DNA of 63,928 bases, counting the filler, from Atractiella rhizophila (Eukaryota): NCBI GenBank assembly GCA_021432655.1. It is 3 parts of 3 records of this genome, joined end to end, with 100 filler letters (N's around TTAATTAATTAA, not from the genome) between each part and the next. Parts side by side here need not be neighbours in the genome. Positions count along the whole stretch, not along the records: positions 1 to 25,464 come from MU271743.1; 2 more parts are not named here. One strand, written 5' to 3'. The translations under genes and the position numbers were made by a program. This document shows positions 1 to 48,242 of the stretch, in pieces. Position 1 is the stretch's first letter. Every line of letters begins with the position of its first letter. The notes below the pieces were generated by a model, which was not told where the DNA came from, did no database searches, and was given only the letters and a program-made list of their open reading frames with translations.

Positions 1-2853
1 GCAGTGGGCTTGCCCCTGCCGATCTTCTACCACCTGGTAGAGCTCCTTCGCCTCCTCGAAACACCCCAGCGCTTCCTCCATTCGACCCCGATGCTGCTCG
101 ATCTCCCCAATGCTGCGAATGCAGTGGGCTTGCCCCTGCCGATCTTCTACCGCCTGGTACAGCTGCTTCGCCTCCTCAAAATGTTTTAAGGGTGTTTGAG
201 GAATTCCCTGCTGTTGAAATGCAAGACCCATTGCCATTTTCAATTCGGCTTTGGAATTCATTTGAAAACTATTGGATTTCGTGGTTGATACAGCCTGCTG
301 CAACAGTTTGATTGAGAGAAGGCGCTGGAGATATTGAAAGTGCCAACTTTCCACAAGGAAATGGACCAACATTGTCGAATCCTGCAGACGTTCAAAACTG
401 ACCAGAAGCACATACTCAAGATTTGGATGATCGTTGCGGAAGCACAACAGCCCTATCTGTTTGCCCTCAACTTCGAATCGTTGGATATTTTCCCGAGCTT
501 TGTGCATAAGACGCTCAGTAACGGGCTCAAGGGAAGGTACAATGGTTTTAAAACTAGGATCGGAATGTAAGACTGAGTAGTTGACATGTTCACGAATTGG
601 CGCAAGCATCCGCAATCGTGTTGAGTTCGTCAGGCCGTCTTCGTTTGTTTCAGCGAGTCCGACGGAGAAAATTGAAGTGATGACCTCGTAGGATTTCTCT
701 GAATCAGGAAGGCAGGATTTCTCCGTAAGTGCGACAATGTCCGTGTCCAAAAGCCCATCAGGTGCCCAGGACAGAGCGGCGAGTATAAAGGTGCTTAGGT
801 CGTGATGCATTGTGAGAAGAGGTAAGCTAAGTGAAAAAGATATCGACGTTGCAAGAGTTGGAGTCTCCTCGCTGTCCTTGTCCCATAGCACCTTTGTCTT
901 CTTTGCCTCCCACTCCTCTAACAGAGTTGAAATATGTTTTGTTGACTCTGCGTTGGCACGAAGAACAAAGAGCTTGATCGACAAAGTGTGATGATCCAGC
1001 TTAGCGAAGATGGTCTTGAGCACCTGTTCCGTACAAATCTTTCTTCCCGTGTAAAGGTGCTTGAACAGGTCCAGCCAGGCAGCGTCAGATATGCCTCTGA
1101 TTGTCAGCTCTCGAAATTCCACATCTGTGACGTTCACTCGATAGATTCGACGTCCCCGATGGGCTACGATGAGAATGGACCCCAAGGTATTGTTTGCAGA
1201 AAGAAGAGCTTGCAAGAATGGCTGCAGTTGCTCCGTGTCACGCTCTGCGGTGGTTTCAAAATTGTCCAAGATAAGGAGACATTTGTTGTTACTGAAATAT
1301 CGTGCAACAGCAGCGAGTTCAGTTTCTCCAGGTAGAGGGGCTATTCCGAAGACCTGCCTGCAAAGGTATGTAGAGAGAGATGAAAATGTAGAGAAAACGT
1401 CGCATCGTGCCCAGAACCGAAAGTCTTCCTCCTCGTTCTCCGCAATGGTCGTGAATGCATCTTTGACTTCCTTCGCATGCAGGACCTGTCGGGCCACAGT
1501 AGACTTCCCATTGCCAGCGCCACCGATGATTGCAAGATGGTTTTTGTCGGTGAGGATGCACTTGATTGCCGTCTCAACTTCGTCATCTCTTCCATAACAA
1601 TCTCCTGTATGAGGCAACGGAAGCTTTCTGGGCACAGCAATGCGTTGTTTACAGCCTAAACAAGTGCAAGTCAGCATGCCGCCATCAATCACGCAACATG
1701 GAGAATACCTCGCACAAGCGACTTGGTCGCAGAGGAAACTTCATGATTCATATCCTCCATGTAAGCCTTTGTGCAGCCCACAACGTCCTCTTTTCGCTCC
1801 CATTCCTCCCACTTGAAGTCTCTGAATGTATCCACCGAGAAACGATGATAGCAATGACCCATCTCGCGGTCCTGCATCTTCACCTTCACGTCGTTCGAAA
1901 CCTTCGAGCAATCCGCGACTATCGCTTTGAGTGCTTTCTCAATATCGTCCCGAGTGCGGCCTAACTCGACAGCCCGTGCAACTCCTGGGCCGAGAGACAC
2001 AAGACAGGCAATCTCACTGCTGGCTCCCCAAATCCGGTTGGCTTCATCGACGGCTACCAATGTAGGGTTGTTGGCGCTAAGCTGAACGTAGCCGGTGGAA
2101 TCTTCGTTCATGGGAGGAAAGAAAGGAGGACGGGCAGACGTAGCCCTTGCGGCTTGCCAGACGAAACATGGGGAAGCGGAGCGAGAGGCAGATCCAGCAT
2201 GATGAATGTCATAGGTGCGCATCTCCGTTGAAACGACAACGCTGGCTTGATAGCTAGAGAGGACGAACGTCCTGCACCTATCCTGCGGAGAAGGGTCCTT
2301 CATAGGAAGAGGCTCCGTGGGATCTTCAAGGGGGGGCGTGTGTCGCTGGATGATGGATATCAACGTCTCTTCCAGCCTCGTTGCTGAGAACAAGTACCCG
2401 CCACTGGGGTCCGAATCCTCTTCTAGAAAGCCGTCTCGCGCGATCTCTTCGTACGCTGCAATGCACTGACGTACTGTCATCCCCAGCCTGCCGAGCATAA
2501 GTGCGATCCACCCGCCAGTCGAAGTCCCACAAATGAGATCGAAGACATCGCAAGGTCGAAGCTCTTCATTCTCGGGGACGTTGAGAAGATGTGCGGCTTG
2601 ACGCATGATGGGTTCGAGCATGTAAGGAGCTGAGAAAGTGCCAACGCCTCCGTTGTCGATAGAAAGGATCCGTAGTCCGAGCGGATTCGTTTTCTTAATA
2701 TTCTCGGGAATTTTGAACACTTTGACGGAATTCGCGGACATGAAGGGCAAAGTGTTGGATTGCAGGATGAATCTCCAAAAACAGCGATTGAAATCGTGGT
2801 TATAGGTAGAGGAAGGAACTGCCTGAGGATGGTACAATCTAGTCACCTTCCAT
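1..2853 (-). CDS. Fungal NLR copy 1: patatin + STAND (NB-ARC-like) NTPase + TPR repeats; 3' end runs off the window
   Basis: The patatin ORF 2846-1689 (SIDNGG, DLICGTSTGG, ARATSA..NNP) is joined by a 53-nt phase-1 intron (1708-1656, GTATTC..GCTGAC..TTTAG) to an exon I read stop-free from 1655 to base 1. That exon has Walker A GGAGNGKST, Walker B LLILDNFET and then FEEAKELYQVVEDRQGQAHC repeats. The ATG homologous to copies 2/3 (2853) is out of frame by one extra base; the conserved in-frame Met of MSANSVK is at 2741. Confidence 0.9.
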
Positions 2854-2928
2854 CAGTCTTGCTTCTACACGTTCGTTGCATATAACATAATTGAATCCAG
2901 CTTTGTGTCATTGTCCTCGAGTTAATAT

Positions 2929-4370
2929 TTAAGAGAGCAGATGATCGTACCCTCGCCAAACGTAGTGCTTTGCTGCTCTGTTCGTTGCCTTTGTGCCATC
3001 ACATATGACACTGTACCTTTCTCTCAGCTGGACGTAGAAACTCTCTCCCTTTGTTGAATGAATTAAATCTTGTAACTCTTTTTGGAACTCTACCAGCGTA
3101 CGTGCGGTCTGGAAGCAGACGAACTGAAGAAAGCCAAATCGCGAGTGCTCCTTCGCTATCTTTTGAAGAGCAATTTCAAGGCAACGGCAAAGCCACATCT
3201 CTGTCATTTCTGCGTTTTTCCTGCGGCGAAACAAGCAAATACTCACCTCTGCACGAGAATTCACGAAATCACGATTTCAGCTCTCTCCAGCTCAGATGCC
3301 AGGGCCGCTCAATGTTAAGTTATCCCAATAGCTCTTTCCAATTTTCCCGACTTCTTGAGCTGCCTTAAATTTTCTCGCTAAAGATTCAACACTTTCGTCT
3401 TTCGTCGTTCTCACGGTTTCATCATCCTCCACAATTGACCCTAACTCATTGAGACGCGTGACGCGTGAACCCTACTTCTTCAGTCACCGCGACTTAGCGC
3501 TCCACTCGTTCGCCTTCTCCTGCCTACAACGGATCGTATGAGGGACTCCAGCTAGCCAACTCGACATCGTCCCGCGGCCGCTGCTCGTTCCTTAATAAGT
3601 TCCTGATTCCTCTCTGCTCGATCAGGCGACAGGATCGAGTTACTAGTACTTATGCCTGAAGTTCTTCAGGTCAGACGAGGAGAGGTGCTGGTCGATCTCA
3701 TGGGTTGATAAAAATATTGGACACAAAGGGAGAGGAGCGTCCTCGAGACGGGTAAAGGTCATGGATAGCGGGTAGATTTGGTTCACGTCCAATTGTTTTG
3801 TTACTTCATCACCCTTTGGCATTGAAAGCATATCCGAAGATCAATTAATACCTGGAGGGACAGAGAGTTAATCAGCACAATCTCGTCACAACCTAAGAAG
3901 AGTTGATCGCACCCTTCGTCTCCTACCGAGCAGCACTGTCCCCTTCAAAGTAGCAGCTAACTGAACTAGCTTCTTTCCCGCTCTTCAACCCGTCCTGAGC
4001 ACATAACCTCTAACTGGTATTGCTGTCTCTTGACGAGGAGTCTTTATGGGAAAAGGAGGGAGACTCGGCAGATGCGAGCAGCAGGGTGATTTCGCTAATC
4101 TACGCTCAGAAGTTGGAACTTTGATGCGGTAATCAGTGCGTATAAGACTGACGTGATCGCGGACGAAATGAAGGGAGGATGAGGATTCCTGTTGAAACGT
4201 TGAGAGCAACGGTTCTACCCCAGCAAGTGAGGGAAAAAGTACATCCTGAGTAGCGAGCTATGTAGGTAGGATGTAGAGTTAGGAGGCTCAATGTAACTCC
4301 CGGTATAAAGATGTTAGGATGGCAAAAGAACTAAATGAGTTGCCCGCACGGACTCCGGAATAGCGCCGTT
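2929..4370 (-). pseudogene. Decayed gene remnant of unknown family upstream of NLR copy 1 (paralogous remnant at about 13380-14870)
   Basis: Short broken ORFs and a GTGAGT donor at 3246 are shared with the unit-2 copy (about 13699). Stops and frameshifts differ between the copies. Confidence 0.35.
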
Positions 4371-4899
4371 GAAACAACTTGAGCTGTGAGGCTTGTGAAG
4401 CCTAACCTAACCCTGTCGTCTTTGGTAATTTGTGACCCGTAGAGGTCAGGAAGTGTCCGGTACGAGACTTGAGCCATGTCTTCCTCCCACAGAGAGAAGG
4501 TGCAAGTTGGGTGCTCCACCATGATGAGTCTTTCGCGCGATCTTTCGAGGGATTGAGAGTACCAATTATACTAGTAACAAGACCAGATTCGCGAGGACAA
4601 AAACTCCTGTGCCATTCAAGAGGATGTAACGGATATTTTGATTGAGTAGCCATGTAGATTGCCCGCGATGGAAAACGTTCCTTCGCTCAGACTTGGAAGA
4701 GCAAGAAACGGGTTCTTCCTTAAAGGGGGATCTTGGGGTGCCTGACGGCGGATGAAGTTGCGGACGAGCCAGTTGGGAAGAAGGTGCTTTCATTTTTTCA
4801 CCTCAAAGCCAAAGATCTTGTGTATTTAAGCTGTATTTGGTCCATGTCCAGTTCCATGTGTACCACTAGTACGAGTCAGACCTTTTCGTGTATGTTGGG

Positions 4900-6370
4900 A
4901 TCAGGTGAGACTGCACTGGACGCCTGTGATCTTTGATGAGGAATGTGAAGTGGTGCTTGCTGGAATAGGTGTAAATGTGCCAGAATCTCGGCGCTGGATG
5001 ATAATCAAAGTATCCAGTGAACGTCGCACTCCTTCTGATCAAGCAAAATTAGTGCCGTTTCCTATCAGCTCCCCTTCAGTAGTTTCCCAATCTAGTGTAT
5101 TTCTCACACAGATTAGCTGCCGTAATAACTGATACCCCCAATACCACAACACTGTTCATCTTCCTGCGCGAATCTGAACTCCCTCGGCTACAATTCCACG
5201 CAGCCAATGACACTGAGATTCGGTACCGTGCATTTACGAAAATTATGCCAAGGTCTTTTCCCTCGTTCGGATCGTCAGCAAAGTAAGACATCTGTCCGCG
5301 AATCAACGTGACCCAAAATTTCCTAACATCTGCTTCTTCCCCAACGTCAGCAGCGACCCATAAGGACGCATAAGGACGGACTGACCACAGTGGTTCAACT
5401 GTTTGCGTGAATATGATATTCAGAGTAGGGAAAGGAAGGTTTGAAAGTTCTCTCACGCATAACAGCGTAGCTGAGTGGCCTTCAGAACACCTAGAACGTA
5501 TTACACCTGTTCATATAGGACTCATTACGGGGAATCATGGAAAATGTCTCTTACTCGAGAAATTCTGTGACGGGCTTGCCGCAAAACACAGGAACATTCA
5601 AGCTGTTGCAAACGCCCCACCTCCCCGTTACAAATTGCAAGAGGTGAAGCAGTGTGTCTAAGACTGATTCTAGCCATAGACACAATTTGACTGTCTTTGT
5701 CCCACCCCTGAACGGATGCCAACTACAAATCATCCTAGGAACACACCCCTCAAAGGTCAAAGAAACCATTTTACTCGGCCCCAGCGCTCCTTCCGTCGCA
5801 ATGTCATTGCGCTACTGGTCCGTTTCCTTTGTTCTTTGAGGTTTGGCGAAACCGCAGGAGCACCGCATGCATGATGTAGAAATATAAAAGCTCTCGATCC
5901 TGGCTGCTTCAGGACCAAGCATTTTTCCGGTCAGAAAAGGGTACTCAACAGTCCAAAAGAAAAAATGCAATTCTCTGCGATTTTCTACAGCGTCATGGCA
6001 TTCTCCATGATATCCTGCTCTTCGTCTGCCCCGGCAGTTGGTAGTGCTGGTCCTATCATGGTTTCCGAAGAGGAGGTAAGCACCTGCTTCCGTCGACCCA
6101 TTCAAAACTGATAGCCAAGCCAAGTTTTGGACTAATTGGGCCACTGGAAACTTGACCATTGACACTGCTTGTAAGTCGAACTTCGACGGCCACAACGTTA
6201 GCTGAAATATCTCGACAGGTTGCGGAGCGTGCTCCGTGGTAAGCATTTTTCATAATCTGAGTCGCGAACGCCAAAACGATCTCTACAGAGTTGCGGCAGA
6301 TGCTGCTCTTGCGTTACCTGCCAATGCACCGGAACTTGTTAAGAAATCCCGGAGAAATGATGTGTAATGC
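4900..6370 (+). pseudogene. Decayed gene remnant of unknown family (paralogous remnant at about 15480-17290)
   Basis: Homologous peptide fragments in both units (FDEECEVVLAGIG / CDEEDDTVFAGVG; CDGLAAKHRN / CDRLAAKHRN; MAFSMISC..GSAGP..SE.E followed by a GTAAGC donor), interrupted by stops. Confidence 0.35.
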
Positions 6371-6422
6371 TTTTTTCTAAATTCGAGATTTAGCGGGTCT
6401 TGTGTTCTTTCATTGGAATCTT

Positions 6423-8240
6423 TCAATGTACAACGATAGCTAGGTTTCTTGCACTCCCGCTTTCCTCCTGATCAAACAGATTCCACAATTCCAGCCTAAG
6501 CTCCTTGCCCGCATTCTCGTCTAGAGCCAGTCGCTCTTGCAACAGCAAAGCAAGCCCCGTATATCTCTCCAACACAATATAGCTCTCCAACGCCGGTCCG
6601 AGAAGACATCTGAGCGTCCAAAAGAACATGAATTTCTTCTCGAATCCTTCCCATTCTCCTTGAGGTTCAAGTCGTGCAACGTCATCCTCGTTGAGATGCA
6701 TCTTCTTCAACGCTTTTGAACGAAAGATCTCTTATGAAAGAAAACAGGAGTCCGCCAGTCTACCGACCCTATTCTCAGAAGGAGAAGCAGCCCCAGATGC
6801 TTCGAGCTCTACTTGAAGACGTGCTCGATAGACAAGTTTGCGCACGGATAGCTTTGCGGATTCCCAGGATGACGCTGAAGACGACCACGGTATGGGAGAT
6901 TGAGTGGCGAGAACAAGGTGGTTGTGAGTGAAAGTAGGGGAAACATTGCATGGATGAAATGGGAAGTCTTGAGAAAGAAATGAGACTATTCAACAACAGA
7001 TTGACCGGAGAGAAACCCACTGGAAGAGGAAGTAAGATTGTAGCAACACGCCATCGCGACCAAGACATCTTGACATTCCGCACTCCCAGAGCTAACGAAA
7101 GCGCGCAACGTGTCGACAGTAAGATCTCCACAGGCATGCAAAGCACAAACGACCCTCCCCTCTTCCTTCTCCGCAGGTCCTTCCTGCAGAATTCTCCTGA
7201 TACCGTTCTCATCCAACACTTCCGCTTTCAACGTCAATGTTCCTATCTTCTCCTGCTCCTGCTCCTGCTCCTTCTCATATTTCAAACGGTTTGAAACTAA
7301 CTTCTCTGCTCCAGTGACTTGAGAGGAGCTGCCCTCCATCGCACAAACATCAAGAAGCAGGGGCTCTCTGGTCAAAGGAGCAGAAAGGTGTGCTCGTCCG
7401 GATGCAATATCAATCGCGCTCTCAATTTGTGGTCTATTTGGAAAGCAGCGTTTGGGCAAGTGCGATGAAGCGATTGACCTCATGCGCTTTCTTCGAAGAC
7501 GTGCCGTGAGGCAATCCGCCAGGAAATGTTTTGGATGTGCTGGAGATGGCATGTGAAGACGAAGTCGCTCTAATTCCTTTGCAATCGATTTCCCAGCTGA
7601 GAATGGGTTTGCCACTTGGCTTCCGAGGGAAAAAAGATTCACGACAACGGTCCGTGAATGCTTTCAGTAAAGCAGGAGCGTCTGGCTAGGCGGCATCTCA
7701 GCCAGTATTTCTTGAAATGAAGATCAAGATTGCAGATGAATGTGTGTGACAAGTTGTGAAGGGAATCTCCGGGAGCAGAAAGCCAATTCCTACATGCCCA
7801 ATGACGTTGCAGGGTTAGGACAAAGCCACCGCGTTGAATATCGGTCTAAGCCATTTAATAGCGAGCAGGGGTATGTCCTACACAGTGCTCTGCCATTGGT
7901 AAATAGACCCAAAATGTCACCAAAACCATTCCAGTTTACAGGGATGTCCAATGAAGTGCGACTTCTCTCAATTTCTTCTCAAGAGAGGAAACACACCTTC
8001 ACCACTTCCTTGACTCAGATTTTTCAACGTGGATTCCACAACACTCCTTGCAAGAATTCCGTCGTACCATCCCTCCCATTCGCTTGGGACCATTTCTGCT
8101 GCTTTGTTCACATCGAAAGTACCTGGATTGATAGGAGACTGCCTGAAGAAAGAATTGCTGGATGAGGAGCAGAGCCGAGCGACAGTGGAATCGTGAAGGA
8201 ACTCGAGGTTTTTGCAAGTGAAAAGGCAGCGGTGGGAACA
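6423..8240 (-). pseudogene. METTL25/RRNAD1-like SAM methyltransferase (Methyltransf_32), frameshifted copy A
   Basis: Motifs IDIASGRAHL, ALHACGDLTVDTLR, MACCYNL, FFWTLRCLLGPALESYIVLERY and LFDQ..SARNLAIV. Frameshift near 7436 relative to copy B (MSPKKAHEVDRF is out of frame). Confidence 0.8.
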
Positions 8241-8299
8241 TTATCGACATTTCTCCGACGAGGTCAAATTGAAACTTGAACAAAAGATCCTAGCTGCAG

Positions 8300-9500
8300 T
8301 GCTGAGTCATGCCCTCCGCCCTCACGGTTCTTTGCTTCGCTCCATTTCCTCCGTTCCAACTCGGCGAGAGTTTGCGGCATCGACCACTGCATCCGCTCAC
8401 AACGCAACGTATCCAAAATCCAAACATCCCTTCCTCCAGCAAACGAGCTCTTGCCTGCGCCTCTAACCCGTGCACTCGGATTTTGAACCATCCTCGTTCC
8501 CGTCACCGCTCCATCGTCCATCTCCTCCCGTCTTCAACTTGTCGGATCCTCTCCAATCACGCCTGTCGGATCGAACAACACGTAGCCAGTTAGGATGCGA
8601 GCAACGAACTCGCTAAAAACGACTGGTTGAACAGAGAACGAATGGGGAGGGAGAGCGAGCGGTGTATGTGCCGCCTTTCAACCACGAGGGAAATGCGAGT
8701 CTGGTGCGGGAAATCAAGGACCAATGGGTAAGAGGGCTTCAATGCAGATGGAACAAGTGGTGGATTGCTTGGAGGTAGGCTTAAGGGGCTTGAAGAAGTA
8801 GGCTGCGTTCACAGTGCGCTTCCATTCCTTATCCTCCTCTGTATGAGATTGAGATTCACAGCTGATACGTTCAACAAAATGGAACAGTATCAGTCGCTGC
8901 TGTCGAAACGAGCGAAGCCGCCTCTTTCCGCCCCTCCTCGCCTGACACGCGCACAACATTGCGCCGACTCCGAAGCTCGCGTCATTGGAAGCAATAACCT
9001 CCATTGCCGGCTATTTAGGGGCAAAGACGGTCTCGAAAGAATGTTTCAGGCGTTGGCTTACTCACAAAGGAGGCGTAACGAGTGTGATAGTTGAAGACTT
9101 AAGGGTAGTGGACATGATTGAACGCTTTGCTGGTTCGTCTCCTACTCGCCTTGTTTCATCAACAAAAGCCCTGATGCTTATAGGGATCAATGGATGACCA
9201 TCAAATCCTTGTTGAGCCGCCGTCGCAGCTCTTGCACCTTTCTACGCCGATGGAGCGCCGGAACTCTTGAGGAGGATATTCATGGATCTGCCGAAGGATA
9301 GAGCACAGGGATTTGTCGTTGTTTATGGAGGCAGCCAGGTGTCAATGGCCAAGTTGATGGAGTGGGAGTGACGGTGTGGCGTGGTCGATATTAAGGTCTT
9401 TCGTGGTTGGACGTGTCGGGCTGTCGTTTCATTCCGAAAGCTGATCCCATCAAAATCTGGTTCAACGCTATGGGATAACCCATCTGGACTTTATATTGAG
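8300..9500 (+). pseudogene. Decayed gene remnant of unknown family (paralogue at about 19210-20150)
   Basis: Shared peptide fragments (NELAKNDWL.R.RMGRESERCMCRLSTT; FNKMEQYQSLLSKR; EARVIGSN). Unit 2 lacks the block 9000-9280. Confidence 0.3.
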
Positions 9501-9516
9501 GCATTGTGTGGAAATA

Positions 9517-12500: not shown

Positions 12501-13309
12501 CCTCGACGGCTACCAATGTAGGGTTGTTGGCGCTAAGCTGAATGTAGCCGGTGGAATCTTCGTTCATGGGAGGAAAGAAAGGAGGACGGGCAGACGTAGC
12601 CCTTGCGGCTTGCCAGACGAAACATGGGGAAGCGGAGCGAGAGGCAGATCCAGCATGATGAATGTCATAGGTGCGCATTTCCGTTGAAACGACAACGCTG
12701 GCTTGATAACTAGAGAGGACGAACGTCCCCGCACCTATCCTGCGGAGAAGGGTCCTTCATAGGAAGAGGCTCCGTGGGATCTTCAAGGGGGGGCGTGTGT
12801 CGCTGGATGATGGAGATCAAAGTCTCTTCGAGCTTCGTCGCCGAGAACAAGTACTCCCTACTGGGATCCGAATCCTCTTCAACAAAGCCATCCCGCACGA
12901 TCTCTTCGTACGCTGCAATGCACTGACGAACTGTCATCCCCAGCCTGCCGAGCATAAGTGCGATCCACCCGCCAGTCGAAGTCCCACAAATGAGATCGAA
13001 GACATCGCAAGGTCGAAGCTCTTCGTCTTCTGGGACTTTGAGAAGATATGCGGCCTGACGCATGATGGGTTCGAGCATGTAAGGAGCTGAGAAAGTACCG
13101 ACGCCTCCGTTGTCGATAGAAAGGATCCGTAGTCCGAGCGGATTCGTTTTCTTAATATTCTCAGGAATTTTGAACACTTTGACGGAATTTGCGGACATGA
13201 AGGGCAAAGTGTAGGATTGCAGTATGAATCTCCAAAAACAGCGATTGGAATCGTGGTTATAGGTAGAAGAAGGAACTGCCTGAGGCCGGTACAATCTAGT
13301 CACTTCCAT
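9517..13309 (-). CDS. Fungal NLR copy 2: patatin + STAND + 6 conserved TPR units + probable tail-anchor exon; spans a gap and carries 1-nt indels
   Basis: Patatin ORFs 13309-12710 and 12678-12346; the NTPase core is in the gap 11456-12261; the helical/TPR part runs 11360-9648. Single-base indels in homopolymers near 12728, 12350, 11361 and 9655 may be sequencing errors or real lesions. Confidence 0.8.
9965..10710 (-). repeat. 120-bp (40-aa) TPR tandem array of NLR copy 2, 6 units
   Basis: The unit ALxRFEEAKELYQVVEDRLGQAHCIRSIGEIEQHRGQMEE is visible as near-identical alternating 60-base lines. Confidence 0.95.
11456..12261. other. Assembly gap inside NLR copy 2
   Basis: Run of N; the flanks match 22946 and 23832 of copy 3. 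Confidence 0.99.
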
Positions 13310-16300
13310 TAGCCTTGCTTCTATACATTCCTTGCATACAACATAAATGAATCCAGCTTTGTGCCATTGTCCTCGAGTTAATATTTAAGAGAGCAGATGA
13401 TCGCAACCTCGCCAAACGTAGTGCTTTGCTGCTCTGTTCGTTGCCTCTGTGCCATCACATATGACACTGTACCTTTCTCTGCGCCGCACGTGGAAGCTCT
13501 TTCCCTTGTTGAATGAATTAAGTCTTGTAAGTCTTTTTGGAACTCTGCCAGCGTACGTGCGCTTTGGAAGCGACGAGATGAAGAAAGCCAAATCGTGAAT
13601 GCTTCTTCTGTATCCTTTAAAGAGCAGATTAAGGACAACGGTGAAGCCATATCGATATCATTTCTGCGTTTTTCCTGCTGCGAAGCGAGCAAATACTCAC
13701 CTCTGAAAGAGAATTTACGAAATCACGCTTCAGCTCTCTCCAGCTCAGATGCAATGGTCGCTGAATGTTGCAATGTCCCAAATAACTCTTTTCCAATTTT
13801 TCCAGACTCCTTGCGCTAGCCTTGGACTTTCTCGCTAAAGATTCAACACTTTCATCGCCGTTTCTGCGCTCAACAACTGACCCTAACTCACTGAGACGCG
13901 TGACGCGTGAACCCTACTTCTTGGTTCGCCTCGCCTTCTTCCACGACGACGAATCCTCTGAGGAACTCCAGTTTGCCAACCCTGCATCTTCCCGCCGCCA
14001 CTGCTCTTTCGCTATTAAGTTCCTGATTCCTCCCTGCTCGAAATCGAATCGCTCGCACGCCTGATCTCCCGTGTTCAAGTTCCCTCCATCAGGCGATAGG
14101 ATCGAGAGTTACTCGTACTTATGCTTTGAGGCACTTCGGGTTGGATGAGGTGAGGCGCTGGTCGATCTCTTGGGTTGATAGAAATATTGGAGACAAAAGG
14201 AGAAGAGTGTCCTCGAGACGGTAGGCGTCAAGGATAGCGTCTACATTAGGTTTGGATCACGGTCATTTTTAGTTGCATCATCACCCCTTGGCAATTGAAA
14301 ACATATAGAAAGATCAATTAAGACCAGGAGGGGACACAGCGTCAATCAGCACAACTTGTTACATCCTAAGAAGAGTTGAGCGTGTACCTCCAATTGAGCT
14401 ACACTTTCCCATTTCAAGCAGCCGACAACTGAAACAACTTCTCTGCCGCTCGGTTCCCTTCAACCCCTCTATCAATCCCCCTCTCCACCCATCTTCGAGC
14501 ACATAACATCTAACTGGTATCCCTCCCTCCTGACGCCGATTCTTTAAGGGAAAGGAGCGGGGACTCGCAGAGGTGAGTGGCAAGCTGATTTGGGGCTAAG
14601 CCACGCTCAATGTTGGAAACTTGAGAGGGGGCTGATTCACGGGGAATAGGACTGACCACGTGGCGAATGCTCGCTCGAGGAGGACGTCGATTCCTGCTAA
14701 AGTGGCGAGAGCTACGAATCTAGCGCAGCAACTGAGCGAAAGCGTACATCCCGAGAAGCCAGCTACGTGGGTAGGATATTACGCTAGGAAGCTCAACGTA
14801 ATTCCTGGTATACGGAGGTTAGGATGGCAGAAGTACTAGAGGATTTGCCCATACGGGCCCCGGGAATAGTGTATTTGAGACATTTGAACTCTGCTACCCG
14901 ATACTACGCCATCTTTGGCCCGTGCTAGGCAGAGCTCAGGAAAGGTTCAATGGGTAGACTTGAGAAATGCCTTTCTTACCAGAGAGAGGAGATATGAGAC
15001 GACCACTGATGGTCTTTCGAGGCGCTCAGGACTAGCGAAAGCGATGAGACCCGTGAGTTTCAAGAGGTCTAGCTCTAGCTCTATCTCTGTCCCGTGGCTC
15101 TGCCAAGCAGAATTGCAACTTAAGTTTTGGATGCGTGGTTGTGCTAGCTGTACGCATCGCCCACTGTTGCCAACGTTTCCTTCGATCAAAAACTCGAGAG
15201 AGCAGGAACGCGGCAGTGTTCTCTTTTGCTTTAGGCCCGGTGATCTTGGGTGGGCAGACTGCAGATAAACATGTGGAAGAGCCTAACTGGAGGAATGTGG
15301 CTGTTTCGAAGTCGTTTCGTCACCAAAAGTGGTGACGAAGCTTCCTGAATGTAAGCTCCATGTGATCCATGTTTCCTCCGCAAAGCTCGCTACGCCTCGC
15401 CGTTCTTCGTGTAGTACGTGCCAGACCAATTCGAGGGCGTCGTGAAACCTGTCGCACTATGGTAGGGCCGAGAAAGACTGAACGGGATGTCTCTGTGCGA
15501 TGAGGAAGATGACACGGTGTTTGCGGGTGTAGGTGCAAAGGTGCTAGAATATCTACACTGCAAAATAATCAAAGCCGTCAGCGAACGTCACAACAATCGC
15601 TCGTTCAATCTAGGTACCATTCACGCGTCTGCTAGAACTGATATCACAGGAATGTTGGCCTTCCTATGCGAATCTGCACTCTCTCGAGTAATACAGGCCG
15701 CCTGCAATCGCAATTAAAATGATGGGAACGTCTGCTCCATCCAATAGTCGAGTGGCTGGAGATCTCTGTTGATCCCCATGCTAAATTGTCAAAGATGAAC
15801 AGGAAGATTGGCAGCGATTCCATCTAAATCGAGCATTAGTGGACTGACTGGTGCATCGTTCAATAGACGCACTTCTCAACAGTATTTTCATCTGCTTCTC
15901 CATCCACATTGTGGACAGTCTGCACCAAGTGTCCATTCCGAAAGGGAAACATGGGCATATTCTGGACATACATCGACCAGACAATGCACCGTCCGATATT
16001 TGTGCCAAATGGCGTGCGCACTGGTCAACAGCACTCCAAACTAAGCAGAGATACATCTATCTTCCTCCTTTTCAGAAGAGGAAAACATGATTTCTTCAAC
16101 GCAACGGAGGCATTTAAGGAACTGTAAAAGTGAGTCTTGCGCTCCATCGCAAAATCTCGCTTCCATAAATCTTTCTACTCAGACGATTTCACTGTTCCTT
16201 GACAGTCACAAACAGCAGTCTACATTATCAAACGACATATAAGACGTTCGGATATTACTTTCAGCCACGTCTGTTATCAACACTACTAGAACAACACGAT

Positions 16301-17341
16301 GCACTTCTCAGTAGTTTTCTAGAGTGCGACGTCTTTCTCTATGTGGACCGACAACAGTGGTTCAACTTTTTGCGTGAATATGATATTCAGCTACTGAGTG
16401 ACATTCCTGAACTCCTCGAACGTCCCTGTCTCGAGAGAACTGATCAAACGTACTCATATGGGGAATCCTGGAAAATGTCTGTTACTCGAAAAATCTGTGA
16501 CAGACTTGCCGCAAAACATAGGAACACTTGAGCTGTAGCAAACGCCCCACCTCCGCGTCACAAATTACAAGACGGTGAAGCAATGTTTCTAGGACCGATT
16601 CTAGCCATAGACGCAATTTGTCTATCTTTGGCCCACCGCTGAACGGATGCCAACTACCAATCATACGAGGAACACATCACTCAAGGTCAAAGGAACCATT
16701 GTTCTCGGTCCAGCACTCCTCCCGTCTCAATGTCATTCAGCTACTGGACCGTTTCCTTTACTCTTTGAGGTTTGGGGAAACCGCGAGAGCACCGCAAGCA
16801 TGATGTAGAAAATATAAAGCCCTCGATCCTGGCTGCTTCAGGACCAAGCTTTTTCTGGTTAGAAAAGGGTACTCAACAGTCTAAAGAAAAAATGCAATTC
16901 TCTACGATTTTCTACAGCGTCATGGCATTCTCCATGATATCCTGCGCTTCGTCTGCCACGGCAGTTGGTAGCGCTGGCCCTATCATTGTTTCCGAAGTAG
17001 AGGTAAGCTCCTGCTTCCATCGACCCATTCAAAACTGATAGCCAAGCCAAGTTTTGGACTAATTGGGCCACTGGAAACTTGACCATTGACACTGCTTGTA
17101 AGTCCAACTTCGACTGCCTCAACCTTGACTGAAATATCTCCACAGGTTGCGGAGCGTGTTCCGTGGTAAGCATTTTTCATAATCTGAGTCGCGGACGCCA
17201 AAACGATCTCTACAGAGTTGCGGTAGATGCTGCTCTTGCGTAACTGCCAATGCACCGGAACTTGTTAAGAAATCTCGGAGAAATGATATGGAATGCTTCT
17301 TTCAAATTGGAGATTTAGCGTGCCTTGTGTTCTTTCATCGT

Positions 17342-19173
17342 TCAATGTACAACGATAGCTAGGTTTCTTGCACTACCGCTTTCCTCCTGATCAAACAGAT
17401 TCCACAATTCCAGCCTAAGCTCCTTACCCGCATTCTTGTCTACACCCAGTCGCTCTTGCAACAGCAAAGCAAGCCCAGTGAATCTCTCCAACACAATATG
17501 GCTCTCCAGCTGGTCCGAGAAGACATCTGAGTGTCCAAAAGAACATGAACGTCTTCTCGAATCCTTCCCATTCTCCTAGAGGTTCAAGTGGTGCAACGTC
17601 ATTCTGGTTGAGATGCATCTTCTTCAACGCTTTCGAGCGAAAGGTCTCGTATGAAAGAAAACCGGAGTCTGCTAGTCTACCGACCTTGTTCTCAGAAGGA
17701 GAAGGACCCTCAGATGCGTCGAGCTCTACTTGAAGACGTGCTCGATAGACAAGTTTGCGCATAGATAGTTTGGCGGATTCCCAGGTTGACGCTGAAGTCG
17801 ACCACAGGATGGGACATTGAGTGGCGAGAACAAGGTGGTTGTGAGTGAAAGTAGGAGAAATGTTGGATAGATGAAATGGGAAGTCTTGAACAACACATAT
17901 GAGACTATTCTACAACAGATCTGACCCGAAAGACACCCACTGGAAGAGGAAGTAAGATTGTAGCAACACCCAATCGCGATCAAGACATCTTGACGTTCCG
18001 CACTCCCCCAGCTAACGAAAGCGCGCAATGTGTCGACAGTAAGATCTCCACAGGCGTGCAAAGCACAAACTAGCTTTCCCTCATCCTTGTCCGCACGTCC
18101 TTCTTGCAGAATTTTTCTCATGCCATTCTCATCCAACACTTCCGTTTTCAACGTCAACATCCCTCTCTTATGTTCCTCTTCCTCCTTTTTCTTATACTTC
18201 AAACGGTTTGAAACTAACTTCACTGCTCCAGTGACTTGAGAGGAGCTGCCCTCGTTCCCACAAACATCACGAAGCAGTGGCTCTCTGGTCAACGCAGCGG
18301 AAAGGTGTGCTCGTCCGGCTCCAATATCAATTGCGCTCTTAATCTGTGGTTCATTGGACAGGAGCGTTTGGGCAAGTGCGATGAAGCGATCGACCTCATG
18401 CGCTTTCTTCGGAGACATGCCATGAGACAATCCGGTAGGAAACGTTTGCAGATGCTAGAGATGGCGTGTGAAGATGAAGCCGCTCTAATTCCTTTGCAAT
18501 CGATTTCCCAGCTGAGAAGGGGTTTGCCGCTTGGCTTCCGAGGAAGAGAGAATTCACGACGACGGTTTCAGTGAAACGGGAGCGTCTGGCTAGGCGGCAT
18601 TTCAGCCAATATCTCTTGAAATGAAGATTAAGATTGCAAATAAATGTATGTGACAAGTTGAGAAGGGAATCTCCGGGAGCAGGGAAAGCCAATTCCTACA
18701 TGCCCATTGACGTTGTAGGGTTGGGACAAAGCCACCGCGTTGAATATTGGTCTAAGCCATTTAATAGCGAGTAGGAGAATGTCCAAGACGGTGCTCTGCC
18801 ATTGGTAAATAGACCCAAAATATCATCAAAGCGATTCGAGATGACAGGGATGTCCAATGAAGTACGACTTCTCTCAATTTCTTCTCAAGAGAGGAAACAC
18901 ACCTTCACCACCCCCTTGACTCAGATTTTTGAACGTGGATTCCACAACACTCCTTGCGAGAATTCCGTCGTACCATCCCTCCCATTCGCTTGGGACCATT
19001 TCTGCTGCTTTGTTCACATCGAAAGTACCTGGATTGATAGGGGACTGTCTGGAAAAAGAATTGCTGGATGAGGAGCAGAGCCGAGTGATGGTGGAATCGT
19101 GAAGGAAACTCGAGGTTTCTGCAAGTGAAAAGGCAGCGGTGGGAACATTATCGACATTCTCCGACGAGGTCAA
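17342..19173 (-). pseudogene. METTL25/RRNAD1-like methyltransferase, frameshifted copy B
   Basis: MSPKKAHEVDRF, IDIGAGRAHL, ALHACGDL, IGCCYNL and FFWTLRCLLGP, followed by a 2-nt deletion near 17508 relative to copy A. Confidence 0.8.
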
Positions 19174-20167
19174 ATTGAAACTTGAACAAAAGATCCTAGC
19201 TGCTGTGCTGAGTCATGCCCTCCCCACTGAACACGGTTCTTTGCTTCGCTCCATTTCCTCCGTTGCAACTCGGCGAGAGGTTGCGGCATCGACCACTGCA
19301 TCCGCTCACAACGCAACGTATCCAAACCTCCAAACACTCCTTCCTCCGACAAACGCTCTTGCCTGCGCCTCCAACCCGTGCACTCGGACTATCAGCCACC
19401 ATCGGTCCCGTCACCACTCCATCGTCCATCTCCTCCCATCTTCAACTTGTCGCATCCTCTCCAATCACGACTGTCAACTTGAGCAACATGTAGTCAGTTA
19501 CGATGCGAACAACGAACTCGCTAAAAACGACTGGTTGAAGAGAGGACGGATGGGGAGGGAGAGCGAGCGGTGTATGTGTCGCCTTTCGACCACAAGGTTA
19601 TCACACAGGGAAATACCAGTCTGGTTTGGGAAATCAAAGACCAAATGGGAAGAGGGCTTCAAGCGGCATAGAATACATGTCTGTATCGGGGGTGGTGGAT
19701 TGCGTGGAGGTGTGCTGATGGGACATGAAGAAGTACGCTGGGGTCACGGTGCGTTTCCATTTCTTATTCTCCTCAGTGCAAAGATCTACGGCTGATGGGT
19801 TCAACAAAATGGAACAGTACCAGTCGCTGTTGTCGAAACGATCGGAGCGGCTTTCCTCCACGCCACAGTTCGCCGACTACGAAGCTCGTGTTATTGGAAG
19901 CAATAGATATGCAAGGATCTGCCGAAGGATAGAGCACCGGCGTTTGTCGTTGTTGTTTGTGGGACGCAGATAGGTATTGATGGCGAAGTTGATGGAGTGG
20001 AAGAAATTGTTTGAAGGTGTTTCTTTGGGAGAGATTAAGGTCTTTCGTGGCTGGACTGGTGAAGACGTCCTTTCACATCAACAAACTTGATTCCACCCAA
20101 TCTGATTTCACGGCACCGTTGCGTCCCATTGGGACTTCCGGATATCAAGACATCGTGTCGATATAAA

Positions 20168-23100
20168 TCAATACGTCCTCCATTTCTCTATGTCAAATGA
20201 CAACACTATGCAAAATGTTACAATCCTGCCAAGGATATCAGTGTGCACAAGACATTGAGTGAAGGGAAAGTACCATAACCATTTCCACCAAAGTCTCGTT
20301 TCCGCTTGCCCAATCATCTGAAGCAGATTGTCACAATCATCTACATCGGAAGTGGCAAAACAATCCGCATAAAGCTGACGGGCACGACCGACTTCCTCTC
20401 GCGCGACGGGGTATTGGGATGATTGCAAGAGGAGTTTAGCTAGGTTGTCTCTGCTCCGAGCCTCACAATAGCCGCCAGCTGCTTTGCTCAAATTGACTGC
20501 TTCCTCTAGCACCCTGATTGCTTTGAAGGTACCCCGGGACTTGGCGTCTCCAGTGTAAACCTCACTTATATTGAAAAGACAATTAAGTTGCGCTCCTAGG
20601 TCTCGCTCCAGCAGGTACAGCGCCTTTGCCTCCTCGAAACGGGACAGAGCTTTATCCGTCTGACCCCGATGCAGCTCGACCTTCCCGATGCTGCGAGTGC
20701 AGTTGGCTTGCCCATGCCGATCTTCTACCACCTCGTACAGCTCCTTCGCCTCCTCAAAATGTCTCAGCGCTTCCTCCATCTGACCACGATGCTGCTCGAT
20801 CTGCCCCAACATGGAGAATGCAGTGGGCTTGCCCCAGCCGATGTTCTACCACCTCGTACACCTCCTTCGCCTCCTCGAAATGTCTCAGCGCTTCCTCCAA
20901 CCAGCCCCAATGCTGCTCGATCTGCCCCACACTGTGAATGCAGTGGGCTTGCCCTAGCCGATTTTCTACCACCTAGTACAGCTCTTTCGCCTCTTCAAAA
21001 TGTCTCAGCGCTGCATCCATCTGACCTCGACGCTTCTCAATAATCCCGATGCTGCGAATGCAGTGGGCCTGCCCCTGCCGATCTTCCACCGCCTGGTAGA
21101 GCTCCTTCGCCTCCTTGAAAAGTCTGAGCGCTTCCTCCATCCGACGCCGACGATGCTTGATCTTCCCGATGCTGCGAATGCAGTGGGCTTGCCCCAGCCG
21201 ATCTTCTACCACCTGGTACAGCTCCTTCGCCTTTTCAAAATGTCTCAGCACTGCATCCATCTGACCTCGACGCTGATCAATAATCCCGATGCTGCGAATG
21301 CAGTGGGCATGCCCTAGCCGATTTTCTACCACCTGGTACAGCTCTTTCGCCTCTTCAAAATGTCTCAGCGCTTCATCCATCTGACCTCGACGCTGCTCAA
21401 TAATCCCGATGCTGCGAATGCAGTGGGCCTGCCCCTGCCGATCTTCCACCGCCTGGTAGAGCTCCTTCGCCTCCTTGAAAAGTCTGAGCGCTTCCTCCAT
21501 CCGACGCCGACGACGCTTGATCTTCCCGATGCTGCGAATGCAGTGGGCTTGCCCCAGCCGATCTTCTACCACCTGGTACAGCTCCTTCGCCTTTTCAAAA
21601 TGTCTCAGCGCTGCATCCATCTGACCTCGACGCTGATCAATAATCCCGATGCTGCGAATGCAGTGGGCCTGCCCCTGCCGATCTTCCACCAACTGGTACA
21701 ACTCCTTCGCCTCCTTGAAACATTTCAGTGCTTCATCCCTCTGACCACGACACCGGTCGATCTCCCCGATGCTACAAATGCAGTGGCTTGCCCCTGCCGA
21801 TCTTCTACCACCTGATACAGCTCCTTCGCCTCCTCGAAACAGCTCATCGCTTCATCCATCCGACCACGATGCCACTCGATCTCCCCGATGCTGAGAATAC
21901 AGTGAGCTTGCCCCTGCCGATCTTCTATAACCTGGTACACCTCCTTAGCCTCCTCGAAACGTCTCAGTGCTTCATCCATCTGACCCCGATGCTGCTTGAT
22001 TTCCCCGATGCTGTGAATGCAGTAGGCTTGCCCCTGCCGATCTTCTACTACCTGATACAGCTCCTTCGCCTCCTCGAAACAGCTCATTGCTTCATCCATC
22101 TGCCCATGTTCTTGAATGATTTTCCCCACATTGCAAATGCAGTCAGCTTGCCCCTGCCAATCTTCCACTGACAGATACAGCTCCTTCGCCTCTTCAAAGT
22201 GTATCAATGCTGCTTGAGGGGTTCCCTGCATGTAAAATGCAAGACCCATTGCCTTTGTCAAATCGGCTGTGCAGTTCATGCAAAAACTATCACCTTTTGT
22301 GGTTGACACGGCATGCTGCAATAGTTTGATTGAGAGAAGGCGCTGGAGATACTGAAAGTGCCAGATTTCTGCAAGGAAACAGGCCAACGATGTCGAATCT
22401 TGCAGATCTTCAAAACCAGCCAGAAGCACATATTCAAGGTTTCGATGGTCGTTGCGGAAATACAACAACCCTATCCGTTCACCGTCTACTTCGAATCGTT
22501 GCCTATTTTCCCAAGCTTTATCCATGAGACGTTCCGTTAGGGGTTTAAGGGATGGTACAGTGGCTTTAAAAGGCAGATTACATTGACGGACTAAGTGGTT
22601 GATGTATTCGCGAATCGGTGAAAGCATGCGTAGTCGTATCACGTTTGACAAGGCATCCTCCATGTTTTCGGCGAGTCCGGTGGACAAAATCGAGGTAAGG
22701 ACCACGTAAGACTGCTCCAAATCAGGCAGACGGGACTTCTCCGCAATTGCCACAATGTCATTGTCCAAAAGTCCGTCAGGTGTCCAGGATAGAATGGCAA
22801 GTATAAACATGCTTAGATCCTGGTGTATTTCAAGGAGAGGCGAACTGAGTGAAAATGCAATCGACCTTGCAAGAGTTGGAGTCTCCTCGCTGTCCTTGTT
22901 CCACAGTGTCATGGTCTTCTTTACCTCCCACTCCTCTAACAGAGTGGAAATACGTTTCGTTGACTCTGCGTTGGCACGAAGAACGAAGAGCTTGATTGAC
23001 AAAGTGTGGTGATCCAGCTTGGCGAAATAGGCCTTGAGTACCTGTTGCTCACAATCCTGTTTTCCCGTGTACAGGTGGTTGAACAGCTCCAACAAGGCTG

Positions 23101-24879
23101 TATCGCTTAGGCCGCGAATCTTCAGCTCTCGAAACTGCATGTCTGTGACGTTCACTCGATAGATCTGATGTCCCCGATGTGCCACAATGAGAACGGACCC
23201 CAAGGCACTCTTGGAAGAAAGAAAGGCTTGAAAGAATGACTGTAGGTGCTCCGTGTCACGCTCTGCCGTGGTTTCAAAATTGTCCAGGATGAGGAGACAT
23301 TTGTGACTATGGAAATATCGCGCAACAGTACCGAGTTCACTTTCGCCAGGTCGAGGGGCTATTGCGAAGACCTGTCTGCAAAGCGCTCTGGCGAGTGATG
23401 AAAATGTAAAGAAAGCGTCGCATCGAGCCCAGAACCGAAAGTCTTCCTCCTCACCACTCGCAATGGTCGTGAATGCATGTTTGACTTCCTTCGCATGCAA
23501 GACTTGTCGGGCCACAGTAGATTTCCCATTGCCAGCGCCACCAATGATCGCAAGGTGTTGTTTGTCGGTGACGCTGCATTTGATTGCAGTCTCAACTTCT
23601 TCATCTCTTCCATAACAATCTCCTGTATGAGGCAACGGAAGCTTCCTGTGCACAGCAATGCGTTGTTTACAGCCTAGCCAGGGGCGAGTCAGCATGGGCT
23701 TGCTGCCGTTAATCACGCAACATGGAGAATACCTTTCACAAGCAATCTCGTTGCAGAGGACACTTCATGATGCATTGCCTCCATGTAAGCCTTCGCGCAG
23801 CCTACAACATTGTTCTTCCGCTCCCATTCCTCCCACCTGAAGTCTCCGAATGTATCCACCGAGAAACGATGATAGCAATGACCCATCTCACGGTCCTGCA
23901 TCTTCACCTTCACATCATTCGAAACATTCGAGCAATCCGCGACTATGTCTCTCAGCGCTTCCTGTATATCGTCCCCAGTGCGACCCACCGTGACAGCCCG
24001 TGCAACTCCTGGACCGAGAGACATAAGACAGGCAATCTCACTGCTGGGTCCCCAAATTCGATTGGCTTCGTCGATGGCTACCGATGTAGGGTTGTTGGTG
24101 CTAAGCTGAACGTAGCCGGTGGAATCTTCGTTCATGGGAGGAAAGAACGGAGGACGGGCAGACGTAGCCCTTGCGGCCTGCCAGACGAAATATGGGGAAG
24201 CCGGTCGAGAGGCAGATCCAGCATGATGAATGTCGTAGGTGCGCATCTCCGTGGAAACGACAACGCTGGCTTGATAGCTAGAGAGGACGAACGTCCTGCA
24301 CCTATCCTGCAGAGATGGGTCCTTCATAGGAACGGGCTTTGTGGGATCTTCTGCGGGGGGGGTGTGTCGCTGGATGATAGAGATCAAAGTCTCTTCGAGT
24401 TTCTTCGCCGAGAACGAGTACTCGCCAGTGGAGTCCGAATCCTCTTCAACAAAGCCGTCTCGCGCGATCTCTTCGTACGCTGTAATGCACTGACGTACTG
24501 TCATCCCCAGCCTCCCGAGCATAAGTGCGATCCACCCGCCAGTAGACGTCCCACAAATAAGATCAAAGACATCGCAAGGTCGAAGTTCTTCGTCCTCAGG
24601 GACGTTGAGAAGATGTGCGGCTTGACGCATGATGGGTTCGAGCATGTAAGGAGCTGAGAAAGTACCGACGCCTCCATTGTCGATAGAAAGGACCCGTAGT
24701 CCGAGCGGGTTAGTTTTCTTCATATTCTCAGGGACTTTGAACACCTTGACGGAATTGGCGAACATGACGGGCAAAGTGTTGGATTGCAGGATGAATGTCC
24801 AATAACAGCGATTGGTATCGTGGTTATAGGTGAAGGAGGAAAGAACTGCCTGAGACTGGTGCAATCTAGTCATTTCCAT
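20168..24879 (-). pseudogene. Fungal NLR copy 3: patatin + STAND + 13 TPR units + C-terminal hydrophobic tail; TPR array disrupted
   Basis: Exon 24879-23733, then a 59-nt intron 23732-23674 (GTATTC..GCTGAC..CTAG, phase 1), then the exon with GGAGNGKST and LLILDNFET. Lesions: -1 near 21785, CAG>TAG at 20975-20973 and +1 near 20810. A truncated 3-repeat protein could still be made. Confidence 0.85.
20620..22200 (-). repeat. 120-bp TPR tandem array of NLR copy 3, 13 units, containing a 360-bp higher-order duplication
   Basis: GQAxC motifs occur every 120 bp from about 22140 to 20700; 20941-21300 is nearly identical to 21301-21660. Confidence 0.93.
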
Positions 24880-25099
24880 TAGCCTTACTTCTATGCGTTC
24901 TTTGCATATAACTTAATTGAATTCAGCTTTGTGACATTGTCCTCGAGTTAATATTCAAGAAAGCAATTGATCGCAACCTCGCCAAACGTACTGCTTTGCT
25001 GCTCTGTTCGTTCCCTTTGTGCCGTCAAAACTGGCACTGTACCTTTCTCCGAGCTGCACGGAGAAGCTTTTTCCCTTTGTTGAATTAAGTCTTGTAACT

Positions 25100-25464: not shown

Positions 25465-25564
25465 NNNNNNNNNNNNNNNNNNNNNNNNNNNNNNNNNNNN
25501 NNNNNNNNTTAATTAATTAANNNNNNNNNNNNNNNNNNNNNNNNNNNNNNNNNNNNNNNNNNNN
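25465..25564. other. Scaffolding gap with artificial six-frame-stop linker TTAATTAATTAA
   Basis: N44-TTAATTAATTAA-N44; the same structure occurs at 53125-53224. Confidence 0.95.
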
Positions 25565-48100: not shown

Positions 48101-48242
48101 CCTTCTGCAGTTCAAGAAAAAGCTTCCGAGGAAGATTTTCGTGCAGGACAATACATTCGTGAAAGATGACGAAGCAATCCTTAAGGAATACGAGCTCTCG
48201 ACTAAAGGTGCTATTCAAAGTTTTATCGAAAGGGATCTTTAA
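45185..48242 (+). CDS. DPP3: Dipeptidyl peptidase III (peptidase M49), copy 1, multi-exon; second ATG at 45320
   Basis: Spliced motifs EKLYAHWISKASWAGAR, ESYIGFIE, RAEWEGFVA, GINIPNY, the zinc motif HELLGH (split by an intron), EECRAE and HGQAHMQAR. Confidence 0.95.

Follow-up and report, generated by a model that had tools for sequence, protein, structure and literature searches.

Patatin-type receptors in fungi

The closest described counterparts of the genes considered here are the patatin-type NOD-like receptors (NLRs; NOD, nucleotide-binding oligomerisation domain) of ascomycetes, exemplified by PLP-1 of Neurospora crassa, by HET-Z1 (PaPlp1) of Podospora anserina and by vic2-type proteins. 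PLP-1 is described as composed of patatin, NB-ARC and tetratricopeptide repeat (TPR) parts, and the cell death that it brings about is reported to depend on patatin activity (PMC12881547), while patatin-type NLR systems are reported to have arisen in several lineages (PMC12881547, PMC10197012). According to PMC4986451, patatin is a known NLR effector domain that is almost always paired with NB-ARC. Fungal NLRs are numerous, and the trigger or the killing mechanism is known for almost none of them; the NLRs of basidiomycetes are the least annotated (PMC9815663). The present analysis concerns a 63,928-nucleotide stretch of DNA from assembly GCA_021432655.1 (hereafter the window), whose left part carries three paralogous genes encoding a patatin-like domain, a P-loop NTPase of the STAND class (signal transduction ATPases with numerous domains) and an array of TPR units. 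This locus is probably a tandem cluster of fungal NLR genes in a basidiomycete near Atractiella, generated by duplication of a unit of ~10.9 kb.

Organisation of the cluster

The map of open reading frames (ORFs) and their translations place the three paralogues on the minus strand, at positions 1-2741 (copy 1), 9648-13198 (copy 2) and 20168-24765 (copy 3). In each of them the order of modules, as judged by Pfam, is Patatin, P-loop STAND NTPase and TPR units of 120 bp (40 amino acids), which bears out the three tandem paralogues proposed by an earlier, sequence-only reading of this DNA. That reading had suggested a profile search for patatin, NB-ARC/nSTAND and TPR; Patatin (PF01734) scored 50.8 bits in copy 1, 31.9 in copy 2 and 46.3 in copy 3 against a cut-off of 27.7, TPR_12 scored 31.6 bits in copy 1, which is partial, 141.8 in copy 2 and 102.1 in copy 3, and a P-loop NTPase was found, with the Walker A motif GGAGNGKST and the Walker B motif LLILDN in the translations of copies 1 and 3. 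The features that define the class, a patatin head, a NOD with Walker A and B motifs and a C-terminal TPR array, are all present, and the cluster is a mostly ordinary one of fungal NLRs of the patatin/NB-ARC-like/TPR class, a design that is already known.

The expectation of a basidiomycete host also held, as the best named relatives of the patatin domain, the NOD and a neighbouring Peptidase_M49 ORF are all proteins of Atractiella rhizophila. For the patatin domain this is P0009 (patatin plus NOD, 731 amino acids; 44% identity), and for the NOD P0130 and P0131 (NOD/TPR proteins; 40%), but identity to these proteins is just 40-45% and their models are shorter or partial. The peptidase ORF, in comparison, has two Atractiella rhizophila counterparts at 83% and 70% identity, the next matches being at ~50%. 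More narrowly, the host would be a relative of Atractiella (Pucciniomycotina), as long as the joined pieces of the window stem from one genome.

The genes consist of two exons. In copy 1, exon 1 (1709-2741) is open from its initiating ATG at 2741 and carries the patatin-like domain recognised by Pfam; a 53-nt intron (1656-1708), recognised by reading of the sequence and a frame check, has GT..AG borders, a CTGAC branch site and phase 1, and what lies in the window of exon 2 (1-1655) encodes, by translation and Pfam, the STAND NTPase, the helical part and the first 1.5 TPR units. Copy 3 has the same arrangement, with an open patatin-like exon 1 (23733-24765, ATG at 24765), a 59-nt intron (23674-23732) with the same borders, branch site and phase, and an exon 2 (20168-23673) in which translation and Tandem Repeats Finder (TRF) delimit the NTPase, 13 canonical TPR units, one degenerate unit and a C-terminal cap, the frame being broken within it. 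Exon 1 is 1033 nt long in both copies, that is, 344 codons and one base. In the case of copy 2, comparison with the other two copies identifies a gap-cut exon 1 (12262-13198) with single-nucleotide insertions at 12730 and 12351. An assembly gap of 806 N (11456-12261) covers the C-terminus of the patatin domain, the intron and the N-terminus of the NTPase, and the remainder of exon 2 (9648-11455), as delimited by translation, TRF and Pfam, holds the helical part of the NOD, six canonical TPR units (10706-9987), one degenerate unit and a cap that ends with the stop codon at 9648-9650.

The patatin-NTPase junction

It had been proposed that a conserved short intron fuses the patatin ORF to the NTPase in all three paralogues. 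This applies to copies 1 and 3, where the junctions at 1708/1656 and 23732/23674 are exact, bordered by GT..AG and in frame (the frame check in copy 1 gives ...LVR-G-CKQRIAV... across the junction), whereas the junction of copy 2 lies inside the 806-N gap. Splicing was assessed with contigs of three public runs (X1, X2 and X3) placed on positions 4900-24899 at a likeness threshold of 90%. One X2 contig (depth 217.3, shorter side 65 letters) omits the copy 3 intron exactly (23672->23732, 59 nt, CT..AC on the plus strand, 'cut +1'), and no contig of X1 or X3 does so; a transcript across the copy 3 junction is thus indicated in one run, by a contig that possibly originates from a paralogue. In addition, the gene models of P0009, P0134, P0139 and P0247 pass from patatin directly into the NOD at the same point, as evidenced for P0134, which aligns with exon 1 to about residue 350 and whose residues 354-456 match NOD residues 1-104. 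Splicing is considered real because of the X2 contig together with these fused gene models, and X2 is taken for RNA because a second GT..AG skip (19747->19817) occurs in an X2 contig that is otherwise free of mismatches. X2 contigs are lacking over 22242-22908 and over the intergenic bins, an absence to which no weight is given. All three modules therefore lie in one transcript, with the copy of origin of the contig and the library type of X2 as qualifications.

The duplicated unit and the age of the copies

Self-comparison by BLAST outlines a tandem segmental unit of ~10.9 kb, with 78-91% identity between units. Positions 1-3077 match 22019-25099 at 85%, 1807-3480 match 12262-13922 at 91%, 12262-13530 match 23831-25097 at 91%, and the spacer block 5520-8918 matches 16452-19848 at 88%, while each unit also has a stretch of ~2 kb of its own (3480-5520 and 13922-16452). 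Across the patatin exon, the three pairs of copies give synonymous divergences (dS) of 0.16-0.30 and ratios of nonsynonymous to synonymous divergence (dN/dS) of 0.20-0.22; for exon 2 of copies 1 and 3 (491 codons), dN/dS is 0.32. These values indicate that the copies are old, constrained paralogues rather than alleles, and if copies 2 and 3 are dead, their death is recent.

Paralogous NLR clusters are rare in Sordariales, where they account for 16 of 272 clusters (PMC12258605), and NLR expansions are described as common in basidiomycetes (PMC10197012). Patatin NLRs are put at ~1.7 per species in PMC4986451, and a tandem trio is somewhat unusual for this head.

Each tandem unit pairs an NLR gene with a Methyltransf_32 gene. 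The ORF between copies 1 and 2 (6989-7663, minus strand; Pfam 54.3 bits) is part of a gene in the block 5520-8918, and its paralogue between copies 2 and 3 lies at 17729-18454 on the same strand (66.2 bits). The spacer gene was considered as a candidate SEC9 gene and rejected, Pfam identifying it as a Methyltransf_32 gene.

A total of 1645 X1 contigs were placed on the 20 kb from 4900 to 24899, of which 603 match at 99% or more, 563 at 95-99% and 479 at 90-95%. Over the same positions, the summed depth of the NLR and spacer-gene parts is 1000-9000, compared with ~130-150 for unique contigs; this hints at extra paralogues or a second haplotype, and should not be read as a copy number.

The patatin head

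The nucleophile elbow of the patatin domain, GTSTGG, is intact, and the two other parts of the predicted active site are altered. The glycine-rich motif, IDNGGVGT, has G in place of the oxyanion Arg/Lys; of 120 homologues, 107 carry R and 10 carry K at this position, 117 in all, and the other three are gapped. The catalytic-Asp motif reads YVQ-LS, with two residues deleted and Q at the Asp column in all copies; among the 120 homologues this column holds D in 85, N in one and a gap in 34, that is, D in 85 of the 86 aligned, the gapped rows being mostly proteins trimmed at residue 520. Both changes recur in P0134 and P0139, and the change at the Asp site also in P0009 and P0247, of which P0009 differs in the glycine-rich region and P0247 is without that part of the sequence. 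In the profile of this clade, ...kyva--lgnnnP... is aligned to ...EYVDGGLFANDP... of a solved bacterial patatin, an alignment with which a phmmer search with copy 1 agrees. Among solved proteins, the clade profile matches best (E 1.8e-09 to 2.9e-05) with patatin effectors of the bacterial cyclic oligonucleotide-based anti-phage signalling system (CBASS), of the CapV type, and with iPLA2-beta; the GxSxG elbow and the NNP/NDP motif are common to these and to the present heads, but the solved proteins have [FY]VDGG where the window clade has YV[QAL] and a deletion of two residues.

Since dN/dS across the patatin exon is only ~0.2, the domain must still be of use to the fungus. Judged by these residues, phospholipase catalysis in the style of PLP-1 is doubtful, and this lineage-specific head is possibly either non-catalytic or equipped with a re-wired site. 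A bolder proposal, which we advance tentatively and consider rather unlikely as a whole, is that these genes represent an Atractiella-lineage clade of NLRs in which a patatin domain lacking both the Asp of the Ser-Asp dyad and the Arg/Lys of the oxyanion hole is maintained by purifying selection (~0.2), signals or kills without classical phospholipase A activity, and is expanding by 11-kb tandem duplication. Such an expansion, if true, would be a departure from other fungi, which usually have one or two patatin NLRs. That patatin heads are phospholipase killers, as reported for PLP-1, is an assumption, and a conserved clade that keeps the fold and the elbow without the Asp and the oxyanion residue would put it to the test; the conserved loss of these two residues is the one feature of the locus worth pursuit.

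The NOD and its relatives

A search of 1.84 billion representative sequences with the NOD yielded 985 relatives at E<=0.001 and six at E<=1e-30, the best at 45% identity. In 60 relatives, the G, G and K of Walker A and the D-N of Walker B are nearly invariant, and the associated domains include TPR_12 in 39, nSTAND1 in 24, NB-ARC in 20 and NACHT in six, with N-termini as diverse as SIR2_2 (ten), MLKL_N (four), TIR_2 (one) and Pkinase (one). Single-sequence Pfam scores in the window NODs are 32.3 and 31.6 bits for NACHT (cut-off 26.7) and 17.0 and 22.9 for NB-ARC (cut-off 23.5), accompanied by weak matches to nSTAND1, nSTAND6 and AAA_16, and a single NOD sequence compared with solved structures gives a weak match to NRC2 (E 0.008).

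When the two window NODs are combined with 13 short relatives into a 15-sequence profile, the best solved relative is ZAR1 (E 3.5e-17), followed by MLA13, NRC1/2/3, AfsR, PH0952, Roq1 and Sr35, and the remaining matches are to ABC and Clp ATPases; the 60 matches listed include no NACHT-type receptor. As far as sequence comparison can tell, the assignment leans towards an NB-ARC-like module that has diverged and belongs to a NOD-TPR chassis combined with a wide variety of heads. An NB-ARC-like NOD would agree with the pairing of patatin and NB-ARC reported in PMC4986451.

The TPR arrays

The number of 120-bp units proposed earlier, six in copy 2 and 13 in copy 3, is confirmed by TRF, which at period 120 finds 6.2 units in copy 2 (9964-10701, 738 bp, 89% matches) and 13.3 units in copy 3 (20614-22206, 81% matches, 1% indels), both arrays ending with one degenerate unit and a C-terminal cap. 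In a comparison of 18 in-frame units (11 from copy 3, six from copy 2 and one from copy 1, two units with indels being excluded), eight of the 40 positions are invariant and nine (10, 15, 22, 26, 28, 29, 30, 39 and 40) are highly variable, with an entropy of at least 1.2 bits. The ratio of nonsynonymous to synonymous polymorphism (pN/pS) is 1.29 at the nine variable codons versus 0.31 at the other 31, with an equal pS of 0.27; because the nine codons were chosen by their variability, the value of 1.29 is biased upward and is no test of selection. Two pairs of units in copy 3 are nearly identical (21599/21239 at 99.2% and 21479/21119 at 98.3%), which points to a recent duplication of three units inside this copy. 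A contig joint at 20808->22146 (a net loss of 1320 bases, or 11 units) was set aside, its sides being only 25-34 letters long, and is likely an effect of short contigs on repeats.

These features are shared with the NB-ARC/TPR NLRs of other fungi, such as the P. anserina loci (Dyrka et al. 2014), in which tandem units are near-identical and paralogues differ in unit number; here, too, variation is concentrated at few positions and some units look recently duplicated. High internal conservation together with polymorphism in repeat number is reported for about 21% of fungal NLR TPR arrays, and most TPR motifs of fungal NLRs are given as 42 residues long, a minority as 34 (PMC4986451). In contrast, the unit here is of 40 residues, and the array of copy 3 is broken. 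The locus may be a rapidly diversifying non-self-recognition locus, as the sequence-only reading had suggested, albeit one in which two of three copies are frame-broken in the assembly.

A possible mode of action

From the arrangement of the locus, a unit of ~10.9 kb containing one Methyltransf_32 gene and one NLR gene would have been duplicated in tandem, each NLR gene consisting of a patatin-like exon 1, an intron of 53-59 nt and an exon 2 for NTPase and TPR, and its TPR array would expand and contract through unequal recombination. By analogy with other STAND proteins, the array may keep the protein inactive until a ligand is bound, whereupon nucleotide exchange would permit the NOD to oligomerise; the oligomer would gather the N-terminal patatin-like domains, and their action on membranes could kill or wall off the cell. 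The cluster also offers a natural series, with one apparently clean, one gapped and one broken copy and with 6 versus 13 units, that is usable for following the birth, repeat shuffling and death of NLRs outside the ascomycete models.

Integrity of the copies

Several observations weigh against the interpretation of the locus as a cluster of NLR genes of this class. No copy is seen whole and intact in the window, since copy 1 leaves it within the second TPR unit, copy 2 has, besides its 806-N gap, two frameshifting insertions in the patatin exon, and copy 3, although its patatin and NTPase parts are open, carries two frameshifts and one stop in its array. The patatin domain is without the DGG catalytic Asp and without the oxyanion Arg/Lys, in single-sequence Pfam scoring the NOD passes the cut-off for NACHT and falls short of that for NB-ARC, the pN/pS of the repeats is subject to the bias described above, and the proteins are known here from their sequences alone. 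Moreover, at the 90% threshold the spliced X2 contig may derive from a paralogue of copy 3, and, the library type of X2 not being on record, an intron-free DNA copy could also have given rise to it.

With reference to copies 1 and 3, the insertions in copy 2 are a G in a G run at 12730, which closes the ORF at 12710, and an A in an A run at 12351; the paralogues span the stretch of the copy 2 gap with 880-883 bases, compared with the 806 N in the assembly. In copy 3, unit 4 has lost one nucleotide (CCC -> CC at ~21785), unit 11 reads TAG at 20975-20973 where other units read CAG, and unit 12 has gained one nucleotide at ~20808-20815. As assembled, copy 3 meets its first stop at 21725-21727, after ~3.4 units. 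Of these five lesions, only the one near 12728 appears among the indel rows listed for the contigs, and there the extra base is missing from most of the contig depth (400.7 of 487.1 in X1, 563.7 of 716.6 in X2 and 78.9 of 78.9 in X3), although paralogues ~91% identical would also map near 12728 and the depth is not decisive. Only copy 1, if any, can be taken as free of frame-breaking lesions, and just a part of it is in view.

The assembly is a draft, with two artificial linkers of 100 bp (25465-25564 and 53125-53224, each N44-TTAATTAATTAA-N44) in addition to the gap in copy 2. The linkers imply that the window consists of three joined contig pieces, the NLR cluster sitting in the first, and adjacency of the cluster to anything right of 25.5 kb is not assured.

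Alternative interpretations

The most serious alternative is that the cluster is mostly a graveyard, in which copies 2 and 3 are recent birth-and-death pseudogenes and no receptor function is present except perhaps in copy 1. Five frame-breaking lesions are spread over two copies, the TAG substitution is unlikely as a homopolymer error, and a dN/dS of ~0.2 agrees with copies that were functional for a long time and decayed only recently. Against this, the extra base at 12730 belongs to a G run and is absent from most of the contig depth in three runs, which may make it an assembly error, unless the contigs are cross-placed paralogues, and the assembly as a whole is a draft with gaps and linkers; widespread decay is accordingly a possibility to be taken seriously, though not the one we favour. 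We attach very little credence to the idea that the trio is itself an artefact in which the haplotypes of a dikaryon or collapsed repeats were set in tandem. Such an artefact would be in keeping with the gap inside copy 2 and the 100-bp linkers, and no read-derived contig bridges two copies, but the copies differ by a dS of 0.16-0.30, in intron length and in unit number, they are parted by the unique ~2-kb spacers (3480-5520 and 13922-16452), and X1 contigs agree to within 0-1 differences with stretches that are copy-specific or belong to the spacers, X1 possibly being the assembly's own data and not independent.

With regard to function, the sequence-only reading had matched the architecture to PLP-1 and PaPlp1, which trigger cell death on allorecognition of SEC-9. 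What stands of that match is the domain order, namely an N-terminal patatin-like domain, a central P-loop NOD of the STAND class, leaning towards NB-ARC, and C-terminal TPRs in a single polypeptide, whereas no SEC-9-like gene was found among the scanned ORFs of the window, kinship in the NOD-TPR part is unsupported, the catalytic Asp and the oxyanion Arg/Lys are missing, the host is a basidiomycete (Pucciniomycotina-like) and not an ascomycete, and the genes form a tandem trio rather than the ~1.7 patatin NLRs per species. Since only the domain order is common, the genes are filed under the patatin/NB-ARC-like/TPR class and not in the PLP-1 family. For the same locus to be an allorecognition system of the PLP-1/HET-Z1 type, its NLRs would have to stand guard over a polymorphic SEC-9 SNARE linked to them, with patatin phospholipase activity as the means of killing. 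The origin of such systems in several lineages, as reported in the two sources cited at the outset, would allow for this, and the patatin domain is 30% identical to the Podospora protein P0079 (patatin plus NB-ARC, 1262 amino acids, not confirmed as PaPlp1). On the other hand, BLASTP gives no significant similarity between P0079 and the NTPase-TPR part (best E 1.7), and the present heads lack the catalytic Asp, while the death caused by PLP-1 reportedly requires patatin activity (PMC12881547). Nor did Pfam find a SNARE or SNAP-25-like (SEC-9) domain in 259 ORFs of the window, comprising all 115 spacer ORFs of at least 60 amino acids and, right of 25 kb, 144 of the 165 that have at least 75 amino acids, 21 short overlapping ORFs having been dropped; the search covered the three joined pieces, with the left flank of the cluster out of view, and may have passed over short exons. 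An allorecognition system of this type is therefore highly improbable here. It is also improbable, if slightly less so, that the proteins are not immune or cell-death receptors at all and instead serve housekeeping or development, handling lipids or signalling under STAND regulation. Their function is deduced from sequence, and the degenerate catalytic site speaks against a simple lytic lipase, but repeats of high identity and variable number, tandem paralogy, fast divergence from the nearest named relatives (40-45% identity versus 83% for the neighbouring peptidase) and the swapping of effectors on one NOD chassis (SIR2_2, MLKL_N, TIR_2 and Pkinase in 10, 4, 1 and 1 of 60 relatives, respectively) are together the marks of fungal NLR repertoires (PMC4986451, PMC9815663).

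Neighbouring genes

Just 3' of copy 3, and partly within the duplicated unit, the plus-strand interval 19103-20178 is covered by the X2 contig mentioned above, which skips 69 nt with GT..AG borders at 19747->19817 and suggests an expressed, spliced gene without a Pfam match. Further to the right, two plus-strand ORFs (29536-30069 and 42295-42951) have in common a conserved C-terminal stretch of ~60 residues, match no Pfam family, and constitute a second small paralogous family in the window. The minus-strand interval 53961-58294 holds an ORF with a JmjC domain (27.1 bits), followed by long low-complexity ORFs on the same strand, and an F-box-like ORF is found at 62497-63927; all of these look like ordinary neighbours. 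A tandem pair of multi-exon genes for Peptidase_M49 (dipeptidyl-peptidase III) occupies ~45310-48242 and ~49665-52566 on the plus strand, with 77-78% identity at the DNA level. The two best named M49 relatives lie on one 27.5-kb contig of Atractiella rhizophila, and the M49 duplication therefore predates the split.

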